27,794 bases of DNA from Acidobacteriota bacterium. GTDB lineage: Bacteria > Acidobacteriota > Thermoanaerobaculia > Multivoradales > UBA5704. The stretch covers positions 1 to 27,794 of the forward strand of contig JBDTZG010000065.1 in assembly GCA_040005235.1 (NCBI GenBank). Direction: 5' to 3'. How positions within the stretch are numbered: the stretch's first letter is position 1; every line of letters starts with the position of its first letter. The notes under the pieces were generated by a model. The model did not search any database. It was not told the DNA's origin and was given only the letters and a program-made list of their open reading frames with translations. The translations under genes were made by a program, and so were the position numbers. Of this stretch, positions 12,038-21,090 are shown piece by piece.

Positions 12038-13099
12038 TCACCAGCGCAGCAGGACCAGCTCCGAACAGAACCCCGGCCCCATCGCGGTCAGCAATCCCCA
12101 CGAACCGGGGGCGGGGCGATGGTTTGCCATCGTCTCTTCGAGCACAATCAGCACGGAAGTCGAGGAGAGATTGCCCACCTCGCGCAGGCTTCGCCAGGTG
12201 ACGTCGAGCGCGCCTTCGGGAAGCTCCAGCGTCTCCTGCATCGTTTCGAGCACTTTCGGTCCGCCGGGGTGGCAGACCCAGCTGGCAATGTCGGCACGGG
12301 AGAGGCCGTGGTCGCCGAGGAAGGAATCGACGTCTTCCTTCATGTGCTCTTCGACCACCTTAGGCACGTCGGCGGAGAGGACGATCTTGAAGCCGGTCTC
12401 TGAGATGTCCCAACCCATCACGCGCTCGGAGTCCGGGTAGAAGATCGAGCGGGTGGCGACGATCTCCGGGCCGGAAGGCCCCTTGAGATCCTTCCGCTCG
12501 CTCCCGGCGACCAGAACAGCCGCCGCGCCGTCGCCGAATAGGCCGGAGGCGATCAGGTTAGGAATCGACAAATCCTCCCCCTGGAGGGTGAGCGAGCAGA
12601 GCTCGACCGAGAGCAGCAGCGCCACCTGATCGGGATAGGCGCGCACGTAGTCTGCCGCCCGCGCGATGCCCGCAGCGCCGGCGAGGCAGCCGAGGCCGAA
12701 CAGCGGCAGCCGCTTGATCTGCGGCGACATGCGAAGGCGGTTGATCAGCCGGGCGTCGATCGACGGGGTCGCAACCCCCGTCACCGTGGTGAAGAAGAAG
12801 GCCGAAACGTCGGTGGGGGCAAGCCCCGCGCGATCCAGCGCCTGGCGGATCGCCGCGTCCCCCACCTCTTGGGCGACGCGGATCCAGGCGTCGTTGGCTT
12901 TCCCCCAGGTGGTCAGCTGGTCGTATTCCTCGATTGGCAGCGCCAGGTGCCGGCCGCCGACCAGGACGTTCGCGTGCAGCCGCTGCAGCCGTTCGAGATT
13001 GAACAAGCGATCCTTCCATCGCCGTTCGAGCGCCGCGAGCAGGGTGGCCTGGTCGTAGAAGTGGGGCGGCAGAGCGGTGCCGACGGCGGCGATCTTCAA
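12038..13099 (-). CDS. Type III polyketide synthase (chalcone-synthase-like; alkylresorcinol/alkylpyrone synthase type)
   Basis: TTG start at 13099 with GGAAGGA SD, overlapping the upstream stop; catalytic triad GLGCLAGA (Cys), CHPGGPKV (His), GNLSSTSV (Asn); VELCSL, LFGDGAAA, AMGPGF motifs. Confidence 0.92.
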   Translation of the reverse strand: MKIAAVGTALPPHFYDQATLLAALERRWKDRLFNLERLQRLHANVLVGGRHLALPIEEYDQLTTWGKANDAWIRVAQEVGDAAIRQALDRAGLAPTDVSAFFFTTVTGVATPSIDARLINRLRMSPQIKRLPLFGLGCLAGAAGIARAADYVRAYPDQVALLLSVELCSLTLQGEDLSIPNLIASGLFGDGAAAVLVAGSERKDLKGPSGPEIVATRSIFYPDSERVMGWDISETGFKIVLSADVPKVVEEHMKEDVDSFLGDHGLSRADIASWVCHPGGPKVLETMQETLELPEGALDVTWRSLREVGNLSSTSVLIVLEETMANHRPAPGSWGLLTAMGPGFCSELVLLRW

Positions 13100-13536
13100 G
13101 CAGTGGGTCCTTCCGGATCCGGCGGGGAAACGAGGACGGACGGCGGGGGCGGAAGGGGCGCGGCCGGCCGCGCGAGCGCGCCGAGCACGAGGCCGCAGGT
13201 GGAGTAGAGGATCCACCAACGGAAGGTCATCGCCCAGTACGGATTAGGGTCGAGGCCCGCGGCGGCGATCGAAACGACCAGCAACGGCCCGCGGAACACC
13301 CAGGCGATCCACCCCGAGAGCAGTCCGGAGAACCAGACCGAGCCCCCCTCTCTGTGGATCAAAAGGAAGAGGGCGGCGAGCCCCAAAGCCTCCAGTCCCC
13401 AGGCGCCGAGCTGGACTCGGGGCGGCGACGAAGGGGGAGCCCCCGGGGGGAGCCAACCGAGCGCCGCGAGGCCGAATTGAAACAGGGCCATCACCAGAAC
13501 GAGGAGGACGATCGAGAGGGCGAGAAAGCGGCTCAA
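13096..13536 (-). CDS. Hypothetical 4-TM membrane protein, translationally coupled to the type III PKS
   Basis: Only the last 146 aa of ORF 13096..14784 look real: TTG 13536 (LSRFLALSIVLLVLV...), four hydrophobic segments, Pro-rich tail; TTGA overlap with the PKS start. Confidence 0.7.
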   Translation of the reverse strand: MSRFLALSIVLLVLVMALFQFGLAALGWLPPGAPPSSPPRVQLGAWGLEALGLAALFLLIHREGGSVWFSGLLSGWIAWVFRGPLLVVSIAAAGLDPNPYWAMTFRWWILYSTCGLVLGALARPAAPLPPPPSVLVSPPDPEGPTA

Positions 13537-13545
13537 AGCTCCGGG

Positions 13546-13593
13546 ATCATAGCCGACCTTCCGTCCTTGGGCCGCTCCCCGTTCGTGTACACT
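13546..13593. promoter_or_regulatory. Back-to-back -10 elements of divergent promoters
   Basis: Minus strand TATGAT (13546-13551) 9 nt before TTG 13536; plus strand TACACT (13588-13593) 9 nt before ATG 13603; 66-bp intergenic gap. Confidence 0.5.
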
Positions 13594-13602
13594 GCGGCTC
13601 TC

Positions 13603-14487
13603 ATGATCGCCGCGGAACCGCAGCCTCTGCCGCCTCCCCGGGTCGAGCTGGGCGCCCTCGACACCCTTTGGTTCCAGGTCGCCGGAACGGTGTGCAATTT
13701 GGCCTGCACCCACTGCTTCATCTCCTGCTCGCCGACCAACCATACCCACGAATTCATGTCGCTCGCCGAGGTCTCTCGCTACCTCGAAGAGGGCGCCGGC
13801 TTGGGGGTGAAGGAGTACTACTTCACCGGCGGCGAGCCGTTCTTGAATCCGGACATGGAGGCGATCCTCGAAGCCACCTTGCGGCTCGGCCCGGCGAACG
13901 TTCTGACCAACGGGCTGCTGCTCGACCCCGCCCGGGCGCAACGGTTGAAGGGCCTGGTCGACGCCTCGGAGTATTCGCTCGACCTGCGCGTCTCGCTCGA
14001 CGGCTTCGACGCTGCCACCAACGACCCGATCCGCGGCCCCGGCACGTTCGACCGCATTCTGGAGGGAATCGCGAACCTGGTGGCCGCCGGCTTGAATCCG
14101 GTGATCACGGTGACCGAGGTGCATCGGGAATCCGGTACGGACGAAGGCAAGGCCCGGTTCTTCGAGCTGTTGCGCAGCCTGGGGATCGAAAAGCCGCGGC
14201 TCAAGATTCTGCCGGTGTTCCAGATCGGCGCCGAGGCGGAACGCGGCGGCGCCTACGAAACCTGGCAGCGCCTGAGGGAAGGGGATGCCCCGGAGGGAAG
14301 CTGGGATCACCTGCAGTGCAGCGCCTGCCGGATGGTCACCGATCAAGGAGTGTGGGTCTGCCCGATCCTGGTCAACGAGCCCGACGCCAAGATGGGCGAG
14401 TCGCTCGCCGACACACTCGGGCCTTTCGCGCTCGATCACCCGGCCTGCTGGACCTGCCACGCCTACGGCGTGAGCTGCAAGACCTGA
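13603..14487 (+). CDS. Radical SAM protein with Cys-rich C-terminus, resembling arsenosugar-type (ArsS-like) rSAM enzymes
   Basis: CNLACTHC (CxxxCxxC), FTGGEPFLNP, LTNG, RVSLDG...NDPIRG.GTF; C-terminal LQCSACRM..VCP..ACWTCHAYGVSC. The rSAM call is secure; the subfamily is inferred. Confidence 0.85.
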   Translation: MIAAEPQPLPPPRVELGALDTLWFQVAGTVCNLACTHCFISCSPTNHTHEFMSLAEVSRYLEEGAGLGVKEYYFTGGEPFLNPDMEAILEATLRLGPANVLTNGLLLDPARAQRLKGLVDASEYSLDLRVSLDGFDAATNDPIRGPGTFDRILEGIANLVAAGLNPVITVTEVHRESGTDEGKARFFELLRSLGIEKPRLKILPVFQIGAEAERGGAYETWQRLREGDAPEGSWDHLQCSACRMVTDQGVWVCPILVNEPDAKMGESLADTLGPFALDHPACWTCHAYGVSCKT

Positions 14488-14515
14488 GGCGCAGTACCTG
14501 AGGCAATCCCGCGCG

Positions 14516-15541
14516 ATGGCGAATCGACCCCCGCAAAGCCTGGTGGATCCTACGGAAGAGGCGCTGCGCACCCTGCACCGGGAAAAGCTCGCGGCGCATC
14601 GCGGCCTTGCCACCTGGGGTGAAAAACTCGTGCCGCTCGGCAGCTTTCGGGCCGCGACGCAGAATGCGGGGCTTGCCCTGTCGGCCGAGGAGCGCGGACG
14701 GCGGGTTCGCGAGTTTCTCGCCGCGGGCACCGATCCGACCCCGGTCGAAGGTCCGTTTCGGCGCATCCTGGTGTTCGGCGGCATCTACAACAACCACCTG
14801 GCGCTTGGCCAGCTGCTTGAAGAAGCGGCGCGGCGGCAGGTCGATGCGGTCTACTGCCTGGGCGATCTCGGCGGTTTCGGCCCGAACCCGGAAAAAGTCT
14901 GGCCGCTGCTCCTTTCGGGAGGCGTCCGGGCGATTCAAGGCAACTACGAGGAATCGCTCGCCTCGGGCCGCGAGGACTGCAACTGCGGCTACACCGATCC
15001 CCGCGACAATCATTTCGCCGAGGTTTCCTACCGCTATACCGAGCAAAACTGCTCCGCCGACTTCAAATCCTGGATGGGCGCGCTGCCGAAACGGCGACGG
15101 GTTCAAATCGGCGGGCGCGAGCTGCTCCTGGTCCATGGCTCGCCCCGGCGGATCAATGAGTTTCTGTTCCGTTCCACAAGTCCGGTACCGTTCCTCGAAG
15201 TGTTGCTCGACCAGGAGCGGGCGGACGCCCTGCTCTGCACCCACACCGGCCTTCATTGGCATCGTCGCCTCCCCTCGGGCCGCGACGCGATCAACGTCGG
15301 CGTGATCGGCCGGCCGGCCAACGACGGCGACGTCCGCGTTTGGTATGCGATGGTTGAAGAGGGCGAGGCGGGCGATCTCGCGTTCGAGCTTGCGCCGCTT
15401 CGCTACGACCACCGGGGGCTCGCCGCCGAGATGCGCGCGGAGCGCCTGCCCGAAGAATTCGTCGAAACCGTCACCTCCGGCTGGTGGACCACCTGCCTGG
15501 AGATCCTGCCGCCGCGCGAGCGGGCGGCCTCGCGGTTCTAG
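14516..15541 (+). CDS. Calcineurin-like metallophosphoesterase-family protein with altered metal ligands and a CxC motif
   Basis: CLGDLGGFGP, IQGNYE, LVHGSPRRINEFL, CTHTG, INVGVIGRP, Y-D near the C-terminus; first motif FGGIYNN instead of xDxHxN; DCNCGY insert; ~80-aa N-terminal extension. Confidence 0.8.
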   Translation: MANRPPQSLVDPTEEALRTLHREKLAAHRGLATWGEKLVPLGSFRAATQNAGLALSAEERGRRVREFLAAGTDPTPVEGPFRRILVFGGIYNNHLALGQLLEEAARRQVDAVYCLGDLGGFGPNPEKVWPLLLSGGVRAIQGNYEESLASGREDCNCGYTDPRDNHFAEVSYRYTEQNCSADFKSWMGALPKRRRVQIGGRELLLVHGSPRRINEFLFRSTSPVPFLEVLLDQERADALLCTHTGLHWHRRLPSGRDAINVGVIGRPANDGDVRVWYAMVEEGEAGDLAFELAPLRYDHRGLAAEMRAERLPEEFVETVTSGWWTTCLEILPPRERAASRF

Positions 15542-15608
15542 GATTCGGCCAGTGCAGACCGGCGATCATCCAAAAGGTCCGTTGCCTGCGTACTCTGTAG
15601 ATACGCCG

Positions 15609-16361
15609 ATGCGTGGCCGTCCGACCCTCCTCGTCTTTTCCCGTGGCGCCTCGGCCGAGAGCGCCCGGCGGCGCTTGCTCCCGGGGCGCTTCCGCCACCT
15701 GGAAGACGAGGCCCACCGCGAGCTGCTGGAGGCGGTGCTCGACGCGGGTCGCGAAGCCAGCTGCGCGCTTGCGATTTCGAGCCCGCGGCCGCCTTGCGAA
15801 CGGTCGGGCGTCGAGCATCTGCCGCAGGCGGGCGAGACCTTCGGCGTCCGGCTGGAGGCCGCCGTGGGCGACGCGCTCGCCCGCGGGCCGGAAGTGCTTC
15901 TGGTGGCCGCGGCCGACGTGCCGGGGCTGACCTCAGAGCACGTCGAACAGGCGGTCGCGTCGCTGCGGGAAAATCCCGACCGGGTGGTCCTCGGCCCCTG
16001 CCCCGACGGCGGCCTTTACCTGATCGCGATGGCGCGACCGATTCCGGGCCTCGCCGACGCGGCACGCTGGTGTCGTCGCGCCACCCGGCGCGACCTGGAG
16101 CGCTCGCTGCTGCTTGCAGGCCGTGAAGTGGTTCGCCTCGCACCGCTCTGCGACCTCGACCGCCCGGCGGATCTGGCGGGCTGGCTGAAGCGCGGCGTCG
16201 GCGAGCAAGCGCTCGAGCGCCTCGCGCGGCTGGCCGGTTTTCTCCGCCACGCTCTCACCGCCCTTCGGTCCGGTCCGCCTCGCGACCTCGGGCTGGCGCT
16301 CGCGGGGGTCGCCCCGCTTTGTGTCGGGCGCGCTCCTCCCGCCGCTCTCTCCTTCCGCTAA
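15609..16361 (+). CDS. DUF2064 / TIGR04282-like (CofC-like GT-A fold) protein with C-terminal RAPP motif
   Basis: PQAGETFGVRL..A, AADVPGL, VVLGPCPDGGLYLI, W, LCDLDRPADL match DUF2064; the tail extends to ...LCVGRAPPAALSFR. Start placed at ATG 15609. Confidence 0.8.
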   Translation: MRGRPTLLVFSRGASAESARRRLLPGRFRHLEDEAHRELLEAVLDAGREASCALAISSPRPPCERSGVEHLPQAGETFGVRLEAAVGDALARGPEVLLVAAADVPGLTSEHVEQAVASLRENPDRVVLGPCPDGGLYLIAMARPIPGLADAARWCRRATRRDLERSLLLAGREVVRLAPLCDLDRPADLAGWLKRGVGEQALERLARLAGFLRHALTALRSGPPRDLGLALAGVAPLCVGRAPPAALSFR

Positions 16362-16464
16362 GTTTCCGTTCGCCGCTTCTGTGCGGAGCCCTGCCGTCAG
16401 CGGCGGGTGGTTCGCTCGCGTATTTCTATTTCCCGTGCGTCTCTAGAGGCGCTGGAGGTTTCTC

Positions 16465-17622
16465 ATGGCAACCCTCGCCGTCGATGACGTGGTCAAGGAT
16501 CGGTACCGTCAAGGCGCTCAAGAGCGGGTGGCCGAGCTCTGCTGCCCGGTCGAATACGACCCTAAGTATCTCGCGGTCATCCCCAACGAGGTGATCGAAC
16601 GCGACTATGGCTGCGGCGATCCGAGCAAGCACTTGAAGCCCGGCGAGACCGTGCTCGATCTCGGCAGCGGCACCGGCAAGATCTGTTTCATCGCCGCCCA
16701 GGTGGTGGGTGCGGAAGGCAAGGTGATCGGCGTCGACATGACCGATGAAATGCTCGACGTGGCGCGAAGGAACGCTCCGGTCGTGGCCGAACGGCTTGGG
16801 TTCGCAAACGTCGAGTTCCGCCGCGGCCGGATCCAGGACCTAGGCCTGGACATGGACCGGTTCGACGCCGAGCTGGCAAAGGATCCCATCCGCTCGACCG
16901 AGGGTCTGCTCCAGGCGACGACGCGCGCCGAGCGGCTGCGCCGCGAACACCCGCTGGTGGCGGACGATTCTGTCGACGTCGTGGTTTCGAACTGCGTCCT
17001 GAACCTGGTCGACGGGCACGAAAAGCCGCGCCTGTTCCGCGAGATCTTTCGCGTCTTGAGGAACGGTGGCCGGGCGGTGATCTCCGACATCGTCTGCGAC
17101 GAGGAGGTGCCGGTTTCGATGCAGCTCGACCGCGAGCTGTGGAGCGGCTGCATCTCCGGCGCGCTCACCGAGGTCGGCTTCTTGGAAGCGTTCGAGGAGG
17201 CCGGCTTTTACGGTATCCGCGTCCTCGAACGGCAGCGCGAGCCCTGGCAGACGGTCCAAGGCATCGAGTTTCGCTCGCTCACGGTCGAGGCGTGGAAGGG
17301 CAAGCAGGGGGACTGCCTGGAGCGCAACCAGGCGGTCGTCTACCGCGGCCCGTGGAAAGAGGTGCTGGACGACGACGGCCACCGCATGCTGCGCGGAGAG
17401 CGCTATGCGGTCTGCGACAAGACCTATCGCCTTTACCAGCGGGAGCCGTACGCCGGGATGTTCGACCTCGTCGATCCCCGGGTCGAGGTGCCGCTCCACG
17501 AGGCCGGACCGTTCGACTGCTCGCGCACCCTTCGTCGTCATCCGAAAGAGACCAAGGGACAGGACTACCAGGCAACCACGGAGGCTTCCACATGCTGCAC
17601 ACCCGGCTCGGATTGCTGCTGA
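16465..17622 (+). CDS. arsM: Arsenite methyltransferase-like SAM-dependent methyltransferase
   Basis: GGAGG SD; LCC, DYGCGDP, VLDLGSGTG, IGVDMTDEML, VVSNCVLNL, ISD, LWSGCISGA (ArsM-type Cys positions); extended C-terminal domain ending STCCTPGSDCC. Confidence 0.8.
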   Translation: MATLAVDDVVKDRYRQGAQERVAELCCPVEYDPKYLAVIPNEVIERDYGCGDPSKHLKPGETVLDLGSGTGKICFIAAQVVGAEGKVIGVDMTDEMLDVARRNAPVVAERLGFANVEFRRGRIQDLGLDMDRFDAELAKDPIRSTEGLLQATTRAERLRREHPLVADDSVDVVVSNCVLNLVDGHEKPRLFREIFRVLRNGGRAVISDIVCDEEVPVSMQLDRELWSGCISGALTEVGFLEAFEEAGFYGIRVLERQREPWQTVQGIEFRSLTVEAWKGKQGDCLERNQAVVYRGPWKEVLDDDGHRMLRGERYAVCDKTYRLYQREPYAGMFDLVDPRVEVPLHEAGPFDCSRTLRRHPKETKGQDYQATTEASTCCTPGSDCC

Positions 17623-18449
17623 TCGCAGCGTTTGCCGCAACTTCAGCGGCTTCCGCCCAACCCCTACGAATCAACGGCTCGACCACGGTCAATCCGGTGG
17701 TGGTCGATGCCGCAGAGCTCTTGCGGGCGGAAAAGAAGGCGACGATCTTCGTCGATACCCAGGGGGGAAGCTCGGGCGGCATCGCGGCTCTCGGCGAAGG
17801 GCGGGCGGAGATCGGCATGATCTCGCGCGAGCTGGAGCCGGACGATTCCAAGAAGTTTCCAGGCGTCCACTTCCTGGCGACCCGGATCGGCATCGACGCG
17901 CTCGCGCTGGTGGTCTCAAAGGACGTCTGGGACGGAGGGGTTAAGGTGCTCTCCCGCTCGCAGGTGCAGGAGATCTACGAGGGAAAGATCACCAATTGGA
18001 AGGCGGTCGGCGGCCCGGACCGGCGGATCGTCTTCTTCAACAAGGAGCCCGGGCGCGGCACCTGGGAGTCGTTCGCCAAGTGGCTCTACGGCGACCCGAA
18101 AAAGGCGCCTGACGTCTCGCACCCGGAAGTCGGCGCGAACGAAGAGGGGCGTAACAAAGTGGCCTCGACGCCGGGGTCGATCACGCAGCTCTCCGCCGCG
18201 TGGGCCGACCAGAAGACCGTCTTCGGGGTGGCGATCCGGAGGGGCGACGGCAAGGTCGTTTCGCCGACCCTGGCCGCAATCGCCGACGGCAGCTACCCGA
18301 TCACCCGGCCGCTTCAAGTGGTCACCGACGGGCCTCCCAAGGGGCTGGCCAAAGAGATGGTCGACCTGCTGCTTTCCCCGCGCGGGCAGGCGCTGCTCGA
18401 AAAGCACGGCTACCTGAAGAATCCTGGGGCGGGTCCGAAAGGCAAATGA
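17592..18449 (+). CDS. pstS: PstS-like periplasmic oxyanion-binding protein with altered binding residues
   Basis: ATG 17592 with a GGAGG SD inside arsM (31-nt overlap); signal peptide; INGSTTV, GGSSGG, GMISR, DALALVV, IYEGKITNWKAVGG, YPITRPL. Confidence 0.8.
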   Translation: MLHTRLGLLLIAAFAATSAASAQPLRINGSTTVNPVVVDAAELLRAEKKATIFVDTQGGSSGGIAALGEGRAEIGMISRELEPDDSKKFPGVHFLATRIGIDALALVVSKDVWDGGVKVLSRSQVQEIYEGKITNWKAVGGPDRRIVFFNKEPGRGTWESFAKWLYGDPKKAPDVSHPEVGANEEGRNKVASTPGSITQLSAAWADQKTVFGVAIRRGDGKVVSPTLAAIADGSYPITRPLQVVTDGPPKGLAKEMVDLLLSPRGQALLEKHGYLKNPGAGPKGK

Positions 18450-19372
18450 GCCGGGGCCGAAACGTTGCCGGGCGCGGCGATCAGCGGACGCCGGACTTCC
18501 TCCGGCTCGCGGCGTTCGGCTTGTCCGCTCTCGCGCTCGCCTCGTTCGCCGGCCTGGTCGCGGTGTTCGTCAACCAGGCTTGGCCGTTCTTTAAGGCCCA
18601 GGGACTTGCCGGACTGTTCGGCGTTCATTGGTCGTTCCGCTCGGAGCGCTTCGGCGCGCTGCCGATGATGTACGGCAGCCTCGCGGTGTCCGCCATCGCT
18701 CTCGTCGTGGCCGCGCCGATCGGTTGGGGCGCGGCGGTCTTCTTGGCCGAGGTCCTGCCGCGCCGCGCGCGGATCGCCGCCAAGGTCGGCGTCGAGCTGC
18801 TCGCGGGAATCCCTTCCGTGGTCTATGGCCTGCTGGGCGTTCTCCTGCTGCGCGACGCGGCGATGCGCCTCTTGCGGCCGTTCGATCCGATCTCGGGCGA
18901 TACGCTCGCGACCGGCGGCCTGCTGCTTGCGATCATGATCCTTCCGACCGTCGTTTCGCTGAGCGACGATGCGCTCGCCGCAGTGCCGAAGAGCCAGCGC
19001 TCGGCGGCCCGGGCGCTCGGGCTGGGTAAGGCCGAGACGATCCTGCGCGCCGTCGTTCCGACGGCATTGCCCGGTCTCGCCTCCGCCCTGCTGCTCGGGC
19101 TCGGTCGCGCGCTCGGCGAAACGATCGCGGTGTTTTTGGTCATCGGCCGGCAGGACAACCAGTGGCCGGAGCGTCTGTGGACCTTCGATCCGCTCGCCCG
19201 GGCAGGGCAGTCGGTCACCTCGAAACTGGGGGGTTCAGAAACCGCCGTCGCCTACGGCGATCCGATCCACTGGGGCGCTCTGCTCGGGCTCGGACTTCTG
19301 CTTTTGGCGGTGGTCGCCGGGCTCTCTTTCGCCGGTTCCTGGCTCGCGCTACGGCGGGCACCCCGTGCGTAA
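18446..19372 (+). CDS. pstC: Phosphate-type ABC transporter permease, PstC-like
   Basis: ATGA overlap with pstS; FGALPMMYGSL, ELLAGIPSVVYGL, LAIMILPTVVSLS.DAL.AVP, GLGRALGETIAV. Confidence 0.88.
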   Translation: MSRGRNVAGRGDQRTPDFLRLAAFGLSALALASFAGLVAVFVNQAWPFFKAQGLAGLFGVHWSFRSERFGALPMMYGSLAVSAIALVVAAPIGWGAAVFLAEVLPRRARIAAKVGVELLAGIPSVVYGLLGVLLLRDAAMRLLRPFDPISGDTLATGGLLLAIMILPTVVSLSDDALAAVPKSQRSAARALGLGKAETILRAVVPTALPGLASALLLGLGRALGETIAVFLVIGRQDNQWPERLWTFDPLARAGQSVTSKLGGSETAVAYGDPIHWGALLGLGLLLLAVVAGLSFAGSWLALRRAPRA

Positions 19373-20216
19373 GTGGCTCGGCAGAGGTTTTCTCGCCGCC
19401 GCGGCGCTCTGTGCCCTGGTGGTCTTCGGGGTTCTGGCGGTGGTCCTTTACGAGGTGGTCGGCCGCGGCCTTCCCGCCGTCGATCTCGCCTTCCTCATCC
19501 GCCCTTCGGTCGGCTCGGGTGGCGAAGGAGGCGTTCTGTTCGAGATCCTCGGCACGCTGATCCTGATCGGTTCCGCGTTGGCGGCCAGTTTGCCCCTCGC
19601 GGTGGGTTTGGCACTCGCGGCGACGATCTACCTCCCCTCGCCGAGGCTTCGCCGGCTCACCCTTTCCGCTCTCTATACCGCGAATTCGATCCCCTCCGTG
19701 CTGCTCGGGATCGGTGGTTTCGTCGTGTTCGTCCATGGGTTGGGGTGGGGCAAGTCGTGGCTGGGCGGCGGTCTCTTGTTGGGGCTGATGATCCTCCCCG
19801 CCGAAGCGGTCGCCCTGATCGAGCGGATCGAAGCGCTGCCGCGCCGCTATCTCGATGCGGCCTACGGCCTGGGGCTTACACGCGGCCAGGTCGCCCGGTC
19901 GATCGTGTTGCGCCAGAGCCTGGGCGGGCTGTTCTCCGGCGCTCTTCTCGGCCTGGCCCGGGCGGCCGGCGAGACCGCGCCGATCTTGTTCGCCGCCGCG
20001 GTTTTCTCCGGCGCCCGGATTCCCCAAGGGATACGGGAGAGCCCGGTGCTCGCATTGCCGTACCACATCTTCGTGCTCGCCCAGGATTCGTTCTCCCCGG
20101 CCGGGGAGCGGCACCTCTGGGGCGCCGCCCTGGTGCTTCTCGTGCTGGTAGCGGTGTTGAGCTCGATTGCACTACCCGCCCGCTTGCGGGCCCACGAGGA
20201 GTCGCGGCATGGCTGA
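19365..20216 (+). CDS. pstA: Phosphate-type ABC transporter permease, PstA-like
   Basis: GTG 19365 overlapping the pstC end; GGV...ILGT, SIPSVLLG, LGLMILP, AAYGLG, LARAAGETAPILF, LPYHIF. Confidence 0.88.
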   Translation: MRKWLGRGFLAAAALCALVVFGVLAVVLYEVVGRGLPAVDLAFLIRPSVGSGGEGGVLFEILGTLILIGSALAASLPLAVGLALAATIYLPSPRLRRLTLSALYTANSIPSVLLGIGGFVVFVHGLGWGKSWLGGGLLLGLMILPAEAVALIERIEALPRRYLDAAYGLGLTRGQVARSIVLRQSLGGLFSGALLGLARAAGETAPILFAAAVFSGARIPQGIRESPVLALPYHIFVLAQDSFSPAGERHLWGAALVLLVLVAVLSSIALPARLRAHEESRHG

Positions 20217-21090
20217 GCTTTCTCTTGCGGAGCCGGCGCTTCCGGCCGACCTCTGCTGCCCGGTGGCCGATGGAGGCGCGGCGGTTGCGGCGGTCGAGGC
20301 GAGGACCGGAGCACTCACCGCTCCGGCGCTCGAAACTCGCGGGCTCGGCGTTTCTTTTGCCGGTCGGCCGCTGCTGCGCGGCATCGACCTGCGGGTCGAG
20401 GATCGCCGCGTGCTCGCGCTGATCGGCCCTTCGGGCGCCGGCAAGACCACACTGCTGTTTTGCCTGAACCGGATGATCGAGCTCTCGCCGGGCCTGCGGC
20501 GGCAGGGCGAAGTGTTTTTGTTCGGCGAGCCCATCGCGCGACGCGACGCCGATGCGGTGCGGCGGGAGGTCGGCATGCTGTTCCAACAACCGGTGATCTT
20601 CCCGGGCGGGATCGCCGACAACGTTCTGTTCGGCCTCCGTCATTCGGGGCTCGCGCCACGGAAGAGTTTCCCCGAACGGCTGGAAAAGGCGCTTGCCGAG
20701 GCGGCCTTGTGGGACGAGGTCAAGGATCGGCTCGGCGAACCGGCCGCGAGCCTTTCGGTCGGCCAGCAGCAACGGCTATGTCTCGCCCGCGCGCTCGCGG
20801 TCGAGCCGCGTGTACTGCTTTTGGACGAACCGACCAGTGCGCTCGACCCCCGCTCCACCGAGGCGATCGAGGACCGGATTCGCGAGATTTCTAGGACCCG
20901 GGCGATCGTCCTCGTCACTCATTCGCTCGGTCAGGCGCGCCGCGTTGCCGACGAGATCGCCTGCCTCGATCGCCGCGACGGACCCGAGGGGTCGGCCGGC
21001 GAGCTGTTCGAGTGCGGCCCCTGCCGGGAGCGGCTGGAGCGACCGCTAAGCCGGGAGCTCGCCCGATTCCTCGAGAGCGAAAGAGCCTGA
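20209..21090 (+). CDS. pstB: Phosphate-type ABC transporter ATPase, PstB-like, with extra Cys motifs
   Basis: ATG 20209 overlapping pstA; ALIGPSGAGKTT..CLNRM, VGMLFQQP, AALWDEVKDRL, LSVGQQQRLCLARALAVEP.VLLLDEPTSALDP, VTH...QARRVAD. Confidence 0.9.
   Translation: MAELSLAEPALPADLCCPVADGGAAVAAVEARTGALTAPALETRGLGVSFAGRPLLRGIDLRVEDRRVLALIGPSGAGKTTLLFCLNRMIELSPGLRRQGEVFLFGEPIARRDADAVRREVGMLFQQPVIFPGGIADNVLFGLRHSGLAPRKSFPERLEKALAEAALWDEVKDRLGEPAASLSVGQQQRLCLARALAVEPRVLLLDEPTSALDPRSTEAIEDRIREISRTRAIVLVTHSLGQARRVADEIACLDRRDGPEGSAGELFECGPCRERLERPLSRELARFLESERA

Follow-up and report, generated by a model that had tools for sequence, protein, structure and literature searches.

A conserved C-terminal RAPP-class motif suggests that an enzyme-fold DUF2064 protein may act as an arrest leader for organoarsenical and transport genes in Acidobacteriota and Bacteroidota

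Introduction

Can the gene for a complete, apparently cytoplasmic enzyme-fold protein also serve, through its last codons, as a leader for the genes behind it? The question is raised by a stretch of 27,794 nucleotides (here called the window) from an Acidobacteriota bacterium of the class Thermoanaerobaculia (contig JBDTZG010000065.1 of assembly GCA_040005235.1), in which a gene on the forward strand (15609..16361) encodes a DUF2064/TIGR04282-like protein of 250 residues. The translated open reading frame (ORF) ends in the tetrapeptide RAPP (R241, A242, P243 and P244; codons cgc gct cct ccc, 16329..16340, +), six residues ahead of the stop, in agreement with an initial annotation of the window that had proposed a ribosome-arrest function for it. 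The codons that follow, for AALSFR and a TAA stop (16341..16361, +), are CU-rich and unconserved, and the gene directly downstream on the same strand (16465..17622, recognized with NCBIfam) encodes an ArsM-like S-adenosylmethionine (SAM) methyltransferase.

Fujiwara et al. 2025 (PMC12992588) describe peptides of this class in their main text. The arginine of the ApdA and ApdP motifs is irreplaceable there; at the second position a change from Ala to Gly is fully permissive or gives a stronger arrest, and Ser, Asp and Pro are partly permissive. Random-library screens yielded RxPP with G, A, S or P at x, the ribosome stalls with the third residue of the motif in the P-site and the fourth in the A-site, and EF-P gives no relief of this stall. 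RGPP and RAPP are the most avoided tetrapeptides across phyla, and all seven Streptomyces lividans proteins with a C-terminal RAPP or RGPP were arrested in vitro, six of them with localization signals and one without (PMC12992588). CruR, a DUF2946 protein of Bordetella pertussis (Roy et al. 2022, PMC9426467), was likewise arrested, and SecM is named among the arrest systems (PMC12992588).

TonB-dependent receptors are the class most enriched behind RAPP/RGPP ORFs in this 2025 survey, which kept only ORFs annotated as hypothetical, unknown or uncharacterized (PMC12992588); proteins annotated as 'DUF2064 domain-containing' may thereby have been dropped. The term DUF2064 is absent from the survey's main text, and its supplementary ORF lists might include members. 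That main text already covers the class of motif, how proteomes avoid it and its use ahead of diverse genes, and it leaves two matters open: force-dependent release outside protein localization, and the source of the force (PMC12992588). Among the papers searched we found none in which an arrest motif is fused to a complete cytoplasmic enzyme fold, nor one that places DUF2064/TIGR04282 in an arrest connection or links arrest to arsenosugar-type genes. Arrest peptides of the RAPP/RGPP class are reportedly also the subject of Morici et al. 2024 (PMC10951233).

Here we describe the conservation of the motif, the geometry of the tail that carries it, and the genes and RNA behind it. We hold, with moderate confidence, that the tail is a RAPP-class arrest module and that the gene has a second role, acting in cis as a leader of the organoarsenical and transport genes that follow; what appears to be new, as judged from sequence, is a cytoplasmic enzyme-fold form of the known RAPP-class arrest leaders.

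Results

Conservation of the C-terminal motif

A first set of 120 proteins comprises the window protein and 119 database homologues at 37-85% identity. R[AG]PP lies within the last 30 residues in 108 of these, with RSPP in eight and RPPP in two more; the other two have no motif, and one of them stops at the end of the fold. In an alignment of 54 sequences R241, P243 and P244 are invariant, and they are the sole invariant columns of the tail. We then pooled database proteins and translated loci, removed duplicates, and kept sequences with a fold-end anchor and a tail of at least 35 residues. RxPP stands at most 15 residues from the C-terminus in 178 of the resulting 185 distinct tail-bearing sequences, with A at x in 122, G in 37, S in 16, P in two and R in one; five of the seven without it are distant paralogues, one has RAAP and one is apparently frameshifted. 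One row of the tallies (L007) derives from a genome flagged as unpublished, and dropping it leaves them unaffected. Expressed as column frequencies in the 178 sequences, the motif is R 0.99, P 1.00 and P 1.00, with A 0.69, G 0.21 and S 0.09 at the second position. This natural spectrum (A, G and S, rarely P, behind an Arg at 0.99) matches the published arrest-permissive set. The segment after the motif is 1-15 residues long in the family (mode 5) and is conserved in neither length nor sequence.

All four motif codons vary synonymously (Arg CGC, CGG, CGT, CGA or AGA; Ala GCC, GCT, GCG or GCA; Pro CCG, CCT, CCC or CCA), so what is under selection is the peptide rather than a word in the RNA or DNA. 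Codon choice is skewed in the window and 74 related loci: the Arg codon is CGC in 60 of the 75 (background 0.47), the Pro codon assigned to the P-site is CCT in 17 (background 0.06) and CCC in only four (background 0.37), and the A-site Pro codon is CCC in 44. The skew may reflect tRNA-specific effects on stalling or selection for CCUCC.

Some members carry a variant at the same position, namely RAAP, RGSP, KGSP, KAPP, KSPP or RPPP (L004/L090, L109, L110, L128, L150, L151, L157, L161, L164, L168 and P0145-P0147). As far as their sequences indicate, these could be decayed or weakened switches.

A second clade of low GC content

A DUF2064 protein with 32% identity, encoded in an Owenweeksia metagenome-assembled genome (MAG; locus L103), ends in LRGPPHILQA and scores 102.2 bits against TIGR04282 (cut-off 134). 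Its homologues define a second clade (clade B, the window's own being clade A), and R[AG]PP stands 1-11 residues from the end in 21 of 31 of them; three have KAPP and five are canonical, tail-less proteins. The clade-B tails are rich in K, N, I, F and Y. A sample of 351 Bacteroidia genomes contained 79 with a match, and among the 31 loci that were fetched (genome GC content 0.32 to 0.56) 17 have R[AG]PP, one has KAPP and 13 are canonical and tail-less. A further 36 loci from metagenomes gave R[AG]PP in 20, RPPP in four, KGSP or KSPP in three and other endings in seven, with two unusable. The genomes of tail-bearing clade-B members have 37-56% GC and retain RxPP. Because this low-GC clade, made up mainly of Bacteroidia genomes, keeps the same tail, a GC-driven coincidence is excluded as its source.

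We also built a quick maximum-likelihood tree of the domain alone, with the tails removed (90 rows, including a random sample of 18 from the 69 clade-A loci). The 39 rows labelled tail-bearing all fall on one side of a branch with a Shimodaira-Hasegawa-like approximate likelihood ratio (SH-aLRT) support of 91, and 45 canonical rows fall on the opposite side. Six rows that a length rule had labelled canonical fell on the tail-bearing side; L112, L119, L121 and L129 carry R[AG]PP, and the tail-side rows L109 and L110 have tails ending in RGSP or KGSP. Since all the tail-bearing rows share one side of this branch, a single origin of the tail-bearing branch is likely. By these comparisons the gene in the window is a member of a distinct tail-bearing branch of the DUF2064/TIGR04282 nucleotidyltransferase-fold family, of which more than 200 sequences were found, in Acidobacteriota, Bacteroidota and one Myxococcota MAG.

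Avoidance of the motif in the window's genome

In a crude ORF set of the genome from which the window derives (3,818 ORFs, 1.64 M residues) RAPP was observed 21 times against 72 expected, a 3.4-fold under-representation; RGPP occurs 12 times against 53 expected and RSPP 16 times against 33.5. Each of the three is the rarest among its 12 permutations, and many of the few occurrences sit in doubtful N-terminal extensions.

These counts bear on the simplest explanation of the motif, which is that RAPP arose by chance in a Pro/Arg/Ala-rich tail of a 66% GC genome, and which the initial annotation had itself raised as the way in which its proposal could fail. R, A and P are indeed common at high GC and the tail is rich in them, but a chance product should not be kept in 178 of 185 homologues, nor persist in the K/N/I/F/Y-rich tails of clade-B genomes, nor be a word that its own genome under-represents, and we regard this explanation as barely credible. 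The retention of R[AG]PP despite a divergent linker, which the initial annotation had put forward as the pattern to look for, is what we observe, both across homologues of 37-85% identity and in the low-GC sister clade. On this sequence evidence the C-terminal RAPP is best described as a selected arrest-type motif rather than an accident of GC content.

Two other ORFs of the crude set end in a comparable way. One, on the minus strand (C77:10068-12089), is of 673 residues, and its last four residues before the stop are RGPP. Apart from this, the only other ORF with RAPP near its C-terminus encodes a VapB-like antitoxin (C138:76988-77239, +) that ends DLRAPPRRRSSA; the next ORF, whose start overlaps this stop (TGATG), would on the evidence of its first residues alone encode a PIN/VapC-like toxin. 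With no spacer between the two, the case is probably a different one.

Fold of the protein and geometry of its tail

The window protein exceeds the cut-off of the Pfam family DUF2064 (PF09837; 65.2 bits, cut-off 25.8) and falls under that of the NCBIfam family TIGR04282 (82.7 bits, cut-off 134), and the coding-frame GC signal of the ORF extends to about 16300. NCBI labels TIGR04282 an 'arsenosugar biosynthesis glycosyltransferase' and ties the family to arsenosugar biosynthesis; it is also named rSAM/selenodomain-associated transferase 1. An AlphaFold2 model built on 54 homologues (mean predicted local distance difference test score, pLDDT, of 89) has a MobA-like nucleotidyltransferase fold at residues 1-195 (15609..16193, +), where pLDDT is mostly above 90. 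The top Foldseek match is 3cgx, a DUF2064 representative (E 2.8e-13, TM-score 0.69-0.74), and CofC/FbiD (6bwg) was also matched (1.7e-10). The DUF2064 fold ends in DLDRPADL (residues 182-189), and about 52 residues follow before RAPP.

The N-terminal loop has diverged. Alignment places FSRGASAESARRRLL (15636..15680, +) where canonical members have P-x2-G-x2-K-T/S-R-L, so that the window protein reads G-A-S-A-E-S-A-R-R-R-L in place of the signature. When 10 clade-A, 12 clade-B and five canonical sequences are aligned, both tail-bearing clades have a common loop x-x-[AS]-E-[AS]-x-x-[RK]-x-L and the five canonical members have P-x2-G-x2-K-[TS]-R-L, which bears out the remark in the initial annotation that the usual K-P-x2-G-x2-KTRL is missing.

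Beyond the fold lies a conserved C-terminal helix (residues 203-219 by DSSP, 16215..16265, +; pLDDT 75-82), closed by R220-P221, and then a linker of variable sequence and constant length (residues 220-240, 16266..16328, +). The helix is conserved in the 178 sequences (L212 0.88, L216 0.94, R220 0.81, P221 0.88), and the span from L216 to R241 is 25-26 residues in 173 of them. Most linker columns have a top-residue frequency of 0.2-0.5, the segment just ahead of the motif has a weak [FL][AV]P[VI]xxG pattern and is otherwise variable at constant length, and the stretch between fold and helix is anywhere between 14 and 40 residues long. The motif Arg lies a median of 55 residues beyond the fold end in clade A, and 48-54 residues beyond it in 35 of the 38 clade-B sequences matched by the anchor pattern; a further 27 clade-B sequences escaped that pattern and are uncounted, two of which give 50 by eye.

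With Pro243 in the P-site, the domain (up to residue 195) is at least 48 residues from the catalytic center and the helix is at 24-40. The ribosome exit tunnel holds roughly 30-40 residues, and the domain would therefore be outside it. The model geometry agrees in this respect with the initial annotation, which had put the tail at about 55 residues and judged this sufficient for the domain to fold beyond the exit tunnel.

The same features invite another explanation, in which G-R-A-P-P is a peptide motif of the mature protein, either a tail that docks onto a partner or a lid over the active site, with no meaningful arrest. Residues 220-250 are modelled as coil with pLDDT 67-70, so the tail is not fully disordered, conservation at G240 reaches 0.72, the motif keeps a constant distance from the helix, and candidate partners (the radical SAM enzyme and the methyltransferase) co-occur in the gene cluster. 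A docking or lid motif would not, though, be expected to tolerate at its second position just those residues (A, G, S and P) that permit arrest, or to coincide with the permutations, RAPP and RGPP, that are most depleted in its own genome. The part after the motif is conserved in neither length nor sequence, the Gly before the Arg is lost in RGPP forms, and the motif persists while the neighboring partners change between clades, from a methyltransferase to an outer-membrane receptor. We consider a role confined to the mature protein unlikely.

Gene neighborhoods

In the window the gene order on the forward strand is radical SAM (13354-14487), metallophosphoesterase (14516-15541; both recognized with Pfam and NCBIfam), DUF2064, ArsM-like methyltransferase, PstS, PstC, PstA and PstB of a phosphate-type ATP-binding cassette (ABC) transporter (17640..21090, starts approximate; NCBIfam and Pfam), a flavin adenine dinucleotide (FAD) oxidoreductase and DUF2911, with a type III polyketide synthase (PKS) gene on the opposite strand. 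The radical SAM and metallophosphoesterase genes are co-located in most related loci, and PstSCAB genes follow the methyltransferase gene in many. The methyltransferase scores below cut-off with both of its best-fitting models (NF040538, 326 bits, cut-off 500; PRK11873, 210 bits, cut-off 263), and its translation contains Cys-containing motifs that we take to be typical of ArsM. The radical SAM protein scores 47 bits against ArsS (TIGR04167, cut-off 300), and no ArsR-like domain was matched among the window ORFs scanned, which are a subset of those present.

The motif-bearing clade-A loci number 69, from named MAGs that are mostly Thermoanaerobaculia, with Holophagales, Vicinamibacteria and one Polyangiaceae. 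The gene after DUF2064 encodes a methyltransferase in 47 of these, a radical SAM protein in 13, and something else or unknown in nine. Because a divergent type III PKS is the nearest upstream gene of the cluster in 47 of the 69, the DUF2064 gene normally opens the operon; the order seen in the window is a minority form, found in five loci. The spacer between the DUF2064 and methyltransferase genes has a median of 98 nucleotides (interquartile range 87-105), and where a radical SAM gene follows instead, the likeliest start codons, chosen by eye, lie about 58-276 nucleotides downstream. At one locus (L045:6726-6830) the methyltransferase gene is missing, and its Shine-Dalgarno (SD) sequence and approximately its first dozen codons persist before the radical SAM gene; the leader-proximal RNA has here outlived deletion of the methyltransferase gene.

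In Bacteroidia the next called ORF begins at least 46 nucleotides downstream in 16 of 18 tail-bearing loci (at L122 and L128 the overlapping next-ORF calls were altered on re-calling with ATG starts only), whereas among the canonical paralogues with a called next ORF it lies within 12 nucleotides in five of nine. The downstream ORF encodes a TonB-dependent receptor in all 10 tested from these 18 loci, and at L103 the receptor is followed by SusD. At L118 and L128 the downstream genes match an AhpD-like family (TIGR04169; 190 and 186 bits, cut-off 120) and ArsS (316 and 387 bits, cut-off 300). Among the metagenome loci a TonB receptor is next in 14 and an AhpD-like protein or ArsS in six; ArsS lies directly upstream of the tail-bearing gene at L156 and L162, and BLAST matches to ArsS adjoin that gene at L145, L151, L156, L161, L162 and L164. 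The link to arsenic organification thus appears to hold in both clades.

The wider neighborhoods also recur. Dozens of Thermoanaerobaculia and Holophagales loci (L032-L101), like the window between 12038 and 23227, share a set comprising the divergent type III PKS, the DUF2064-RAPP protein, the ArsM-like methyltransferase, radical SAM, metallophosphoesterase, FAD oxidoreductase and DUF2911 genes. PstSCAB is present in about half, and the radical SAM protein is best matched by the Rv1681 family and not by ArsS or ArsL. From its gene content the set resembles a cluster for making an organoarsenical, which might be a lipid or an arseno-polyketide. In several Bacteroidia loci (L103:1377-11414, L114, L116 and L120) the DUF2064 gene is near genes for a NupC nucleoside transporter, a RihC-like nucleoside hydrolase, an S-methyl-5-thioribose kinase-like protein, a radical SAM protein, an ABC transporter, a TonB receptor and SusD, a content suggestive of the uptake or salvage of a ribonucleoside that is modified at its 5' position and possibly related to arsenosugars.

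RNA between the motif and the downstream gene

If the motif arrests ribosomes, the intervening RNA is where an effect on the next gene would be expected to arise. On the forward strand of the window a C-rich, G-poor tract (16331..16380; 24 C, 8 G, 16 T and 2 A in 50 bases) begins within the motif and includes CCTCC in the Pro codons (16335-16339). It is followed by a first hairpin, CCTGCCG-tcag-CGGCGGG (16390-16396/16401-16407), a second, GCGTCTC-ta-GAGGCGC (16437-16443/16446-16452), and, adjoining the latter, the GGAGG SD sequence of the methyltransferase gene (16454..16458; ATG at 16465). All of these elements are where the initial annotation had placed them, and the pairs of both hairpins are kept by compensatory changes in seven close relatives, with two-sided changes in four of six pairs and 95% of cells paired for the first hairpin and two-sided changes in two of five pairs for the second; two of the seven sequences hardly differ, and the alignment tested is also the one that yielded the structure. 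More broadly, the SD is AGGAGG-like in most clade-A loci, and 33 of 75 post-motif segments contain CCTCC, where 13-22 would be expected. Family-wide, C exceeds G from about -90 to +45 nucleotides around the Arg codon, most strongly at 0 to +45. What had been called a Rho-utilization (rut)-like tract is in this sense real across the family, and its suggested role with Rho would follow by analogy.

Pairing between the end of the DUF2064 gene and the downstream start is clearest in clade B. At several loci the codons that follow RxPP form long helices with the stretch immediately before the downstream ATG, and in the set from genomes the cognate duplexes average -11.4 kcal/mol against -7.0 for non-cognate ones, the cognate ranking first in seven of 16. 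Two control windows upstream of the motif give no such signal. With the genome and metagenome sets combined the cognate ranks first in nine of 31, against one of 31 for each control window (permutation p <1e-4). The median folding z-score of the region from motif to downstream start is -1.32 in clade B. By predicted pairing, roughly one clade-B locus in three, and not every one, has the layout for SecM-like unmasking.

The CCTCC:SD pairing that the initial annotation had proposed for the window itself is weakly supported. RNAalifold, applied to the seven close relatives, pairs the CU-rich codons before the stop with the SD (86% of cells paired), with one-sided changes only and so no two-sided covariation; in a single-sequence fold of the window the stem of the second hairpin extends and a local UUUCCC pairs with the SD. 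A simple SD-unmasking model was tried for clade A and rejected, the SD being freed in four of 48 loci and pairing locally in the window. As judged by analogy, two coupling routes remain for this clade: the CU-rich tail may weakly mask the SD as an anti-SD, or the stalled ribosome may, as in tnaC, occlude a site at which Rho would load.

A number of observations weigh against the reading of the gene as an arrest leader, and several of them concern this RNA. The region from the motif to the methyltransferase start in the window folds no better than shuffled sequences (z -1.09), and the median z of the corresponding region in 47 clade-A loci is -0.61. Masking the footprint of a stalled ribosome raises SD accessibility by more than 0.2 in only four of 48 clade-A loci. 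Cognate complementarity in clade A is no better than non-cognate (p 0.98), in a test that is uninformative there because all loci have a CU-rich tail and a GGAGG SD and the upstream control windows pair better; in clade B the independent metagenome set, taken by itself, ranks the cognate first in three of 15 (p 0.25). Others concern the protein. It has no signal sequence, residues 6-10 being a core beta-strand (pLDDT about 95), and most known RAPP/RGPP leaders are small secreted or membrane proteins (PMC12992588). In the 54-sequence alignment the domain retains the family-conserved residues Q73, R81, D103, DGG133-135 and W154, and it may for this reason simply be a working enzyme. The tail's pLDDT is not below 50, its constant spacing and conserved Gly could equally mean a structural role in the folded protein, and the segment N-terminal to RAPP is, G240 apart, conserved only weakly; variable sequences in this position are allowed in the published arrest peptides (PMC12992588).

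Much of this would suit an alternative in which the ribosome does pause at RxPP, for the sake of the protein itself, keeping its level low or allowing time for folding or for assembly with a partner, with no control of downstream genes. The window's clade has no consistent SD-unmasking structure, the domain keeps its conserved residues, and a constant distance from fold to motif fits co-translational folding or assembly equally well. Such a pause would, on the other hand, leave without explanation why the motif always lies at most 15 residues from the stop and is then followed by a long spacer and a same-strand gene, when tail-less paralogues abut their neighbors, and why, in roughly one sister-clade locus in three, the RNA beyond the motif pairs with the start region of the next gene. 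Regulation by this same layout is known from CruR and the Sec/YidC monitors. We think it improbable that the pause serves the protein alone.

Other scans of the region gave little. Rfam and tRNA searches of the window found nothing, and a scan of 13000-18000 for sigma-70 promoters returned 0 sites, a result of limited meaning in Acidobacteriota. Two terminator-like sites, at 16302-16317 and at 16403-16419, are weak. Among the sequencing runs listed for this DNA none was of RNA. On the minus strand an ORF of 170 codons (15933-16442) with high GC content at third codon positions lies across the spacer and the 3' half of the DUF2064 gene; as a gene it was dismissed, being the usual antisense shadow of a high-GC gene.

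Discussion

The tail of the DUF2064 protein resembles those of ApdA, ApdP and the S. lividans proteins in having a C-terminal R-[A/G]-P-P a few codons before the stop, an invariant Arg with a small residue at position 2, a variable region on the N-terminal side, and a same-strand gene downstream. It differs in that those are mostly small secreted or membrane proteins, released by the pull of translocation, whereas the DUF2064 protein is a 250-residue cytoplasmic protein with a complete fold, for which no pulling machinery is evident. CruR is like the clade-B proteins in combining a ligand-related domain with a C-terminal RAPP ahead of a TonB-dependent receptor. It is, however, exported, copper-sensing and short (its RAPP Arg is residue 139), and the DUF2064 domain is unrelated to it, cytoplasmic and enzyme-derived. 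Any ligand of the DUF2064 domain is, to go by the neighboring genes, more likely to be a nucleotide, a nucleoside or an organoarsenical.

Two classical systems illustrate how such a stall could act on the next gene. In SecM-secA, arrest at R-A-G-P leaves a stalled ribosome that opens a hairpin hiding the secA ribosome-binding site. The likeness here is that arrest would fall a few codons before the stop and that, in roughly one in three clade-B loci, the RNA beyond it pairs with the start of the next gene; in the window's clade, by contrast, this pairing is not demonstrable, and the DUF2064 protein has no link to secretion. In TnaC-tnaA the stalled ribosome hides a Rho loading site beside the stop codon. 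The DUF2064 tract is similarly C-rich, G-poor and weakly structured from the motif past the stop, but TnaC is a peptide of 24 residues that needs free tryptophan in the tunnel, and the resemblance would be one of tract composition.

Within its own family the protein shares with canonical DUF2064/TIGR04282 members the fold (3cgx), the conserved core motifs and neighbors of the ArsS, AhpD-like and ArsM-like types. Canonical members end about 10-20 residues past S-D-I-D, have the P-x2-G-x2-K-T-R-L N-terminus, and in several cases abut the next gene, whereas the tail-bearing branch has an altered N-terminal loop, an RxPP tail of about 55 residues and a long 3' spacer.

We infer from these comparisons stalling at the motif, an effect on downstream expression, an RNA route between the two and, possibly, the sensing of a ligand; the steps would run as follows. 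The RxPP tail would act as a RAPP-class nascent-chain arrest sequence and would hold the ribosome at the 3' end of the gene, its P-site occupied by Pro243 and its A-site by Pro244, by analogy with ApdA, ApdP and CruR. The stall would make the DUF2064 gene a cis-acting leader of the next gene, which in the window is that of the ArsM-like methyltransferase, then pstSCAB, and which in relatives would be a radical SAM gene, AhpD-like and ArsS genes, or that of a TonB-dependent receptor. On arrest, all of the domain would already have left the tunnel, with the last helix alone still inside its lower part. Because the domain would be outside, its folded and possibly ligand-bound state could set the duration of the stall, and docking of the last helix onto the folded domain would pull on the arrested chain; the modelled layout is the one expected for such a pull.

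A further step, which we put forward tentatively and think rather less probable than not, is that the DUF2064 domain is a co-translational cytoplasmic ligand sensor, in which a pull tuned by a metabolite sets the lifetime of the RAPP stall and thereby switches the genes for arsenic organification and uptake; the last helix, in this reading, would be kept at a constant 25-26 residues from the catalytic center while the domain is already folded outside. Candidate metabolites would be a nucleotide, a 5'-deoxyribosyl compound or an organoarsenical.

Whichever of these steps apply, the plain annotation 'glycosyltransferase' is probably incomplete for this sub-branch of TIGR04282. The RxPP tail is kept in at least three bacterial phyla, upstream of genes for arsenic metabolism and of transporter genes, and the family provides a natural series in which an arrest motif stands at a constant distance from a complete cytoplasmic enzyme fold, so that the question of force-dependent release can be tested directly. 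It also suggests a route of regulation for organoarsenical (arsenosugar-type) gene sets and transporters where no ArsR is seen. If the DUF2064 domain does act as a sensor, the arrangement would do in protein what a riboswitch does in RNA, with conservation that reaches from Acidobacteriota to Bacteroidota, and it would answer where the pulling force originates in arrest peptides that are not exported.

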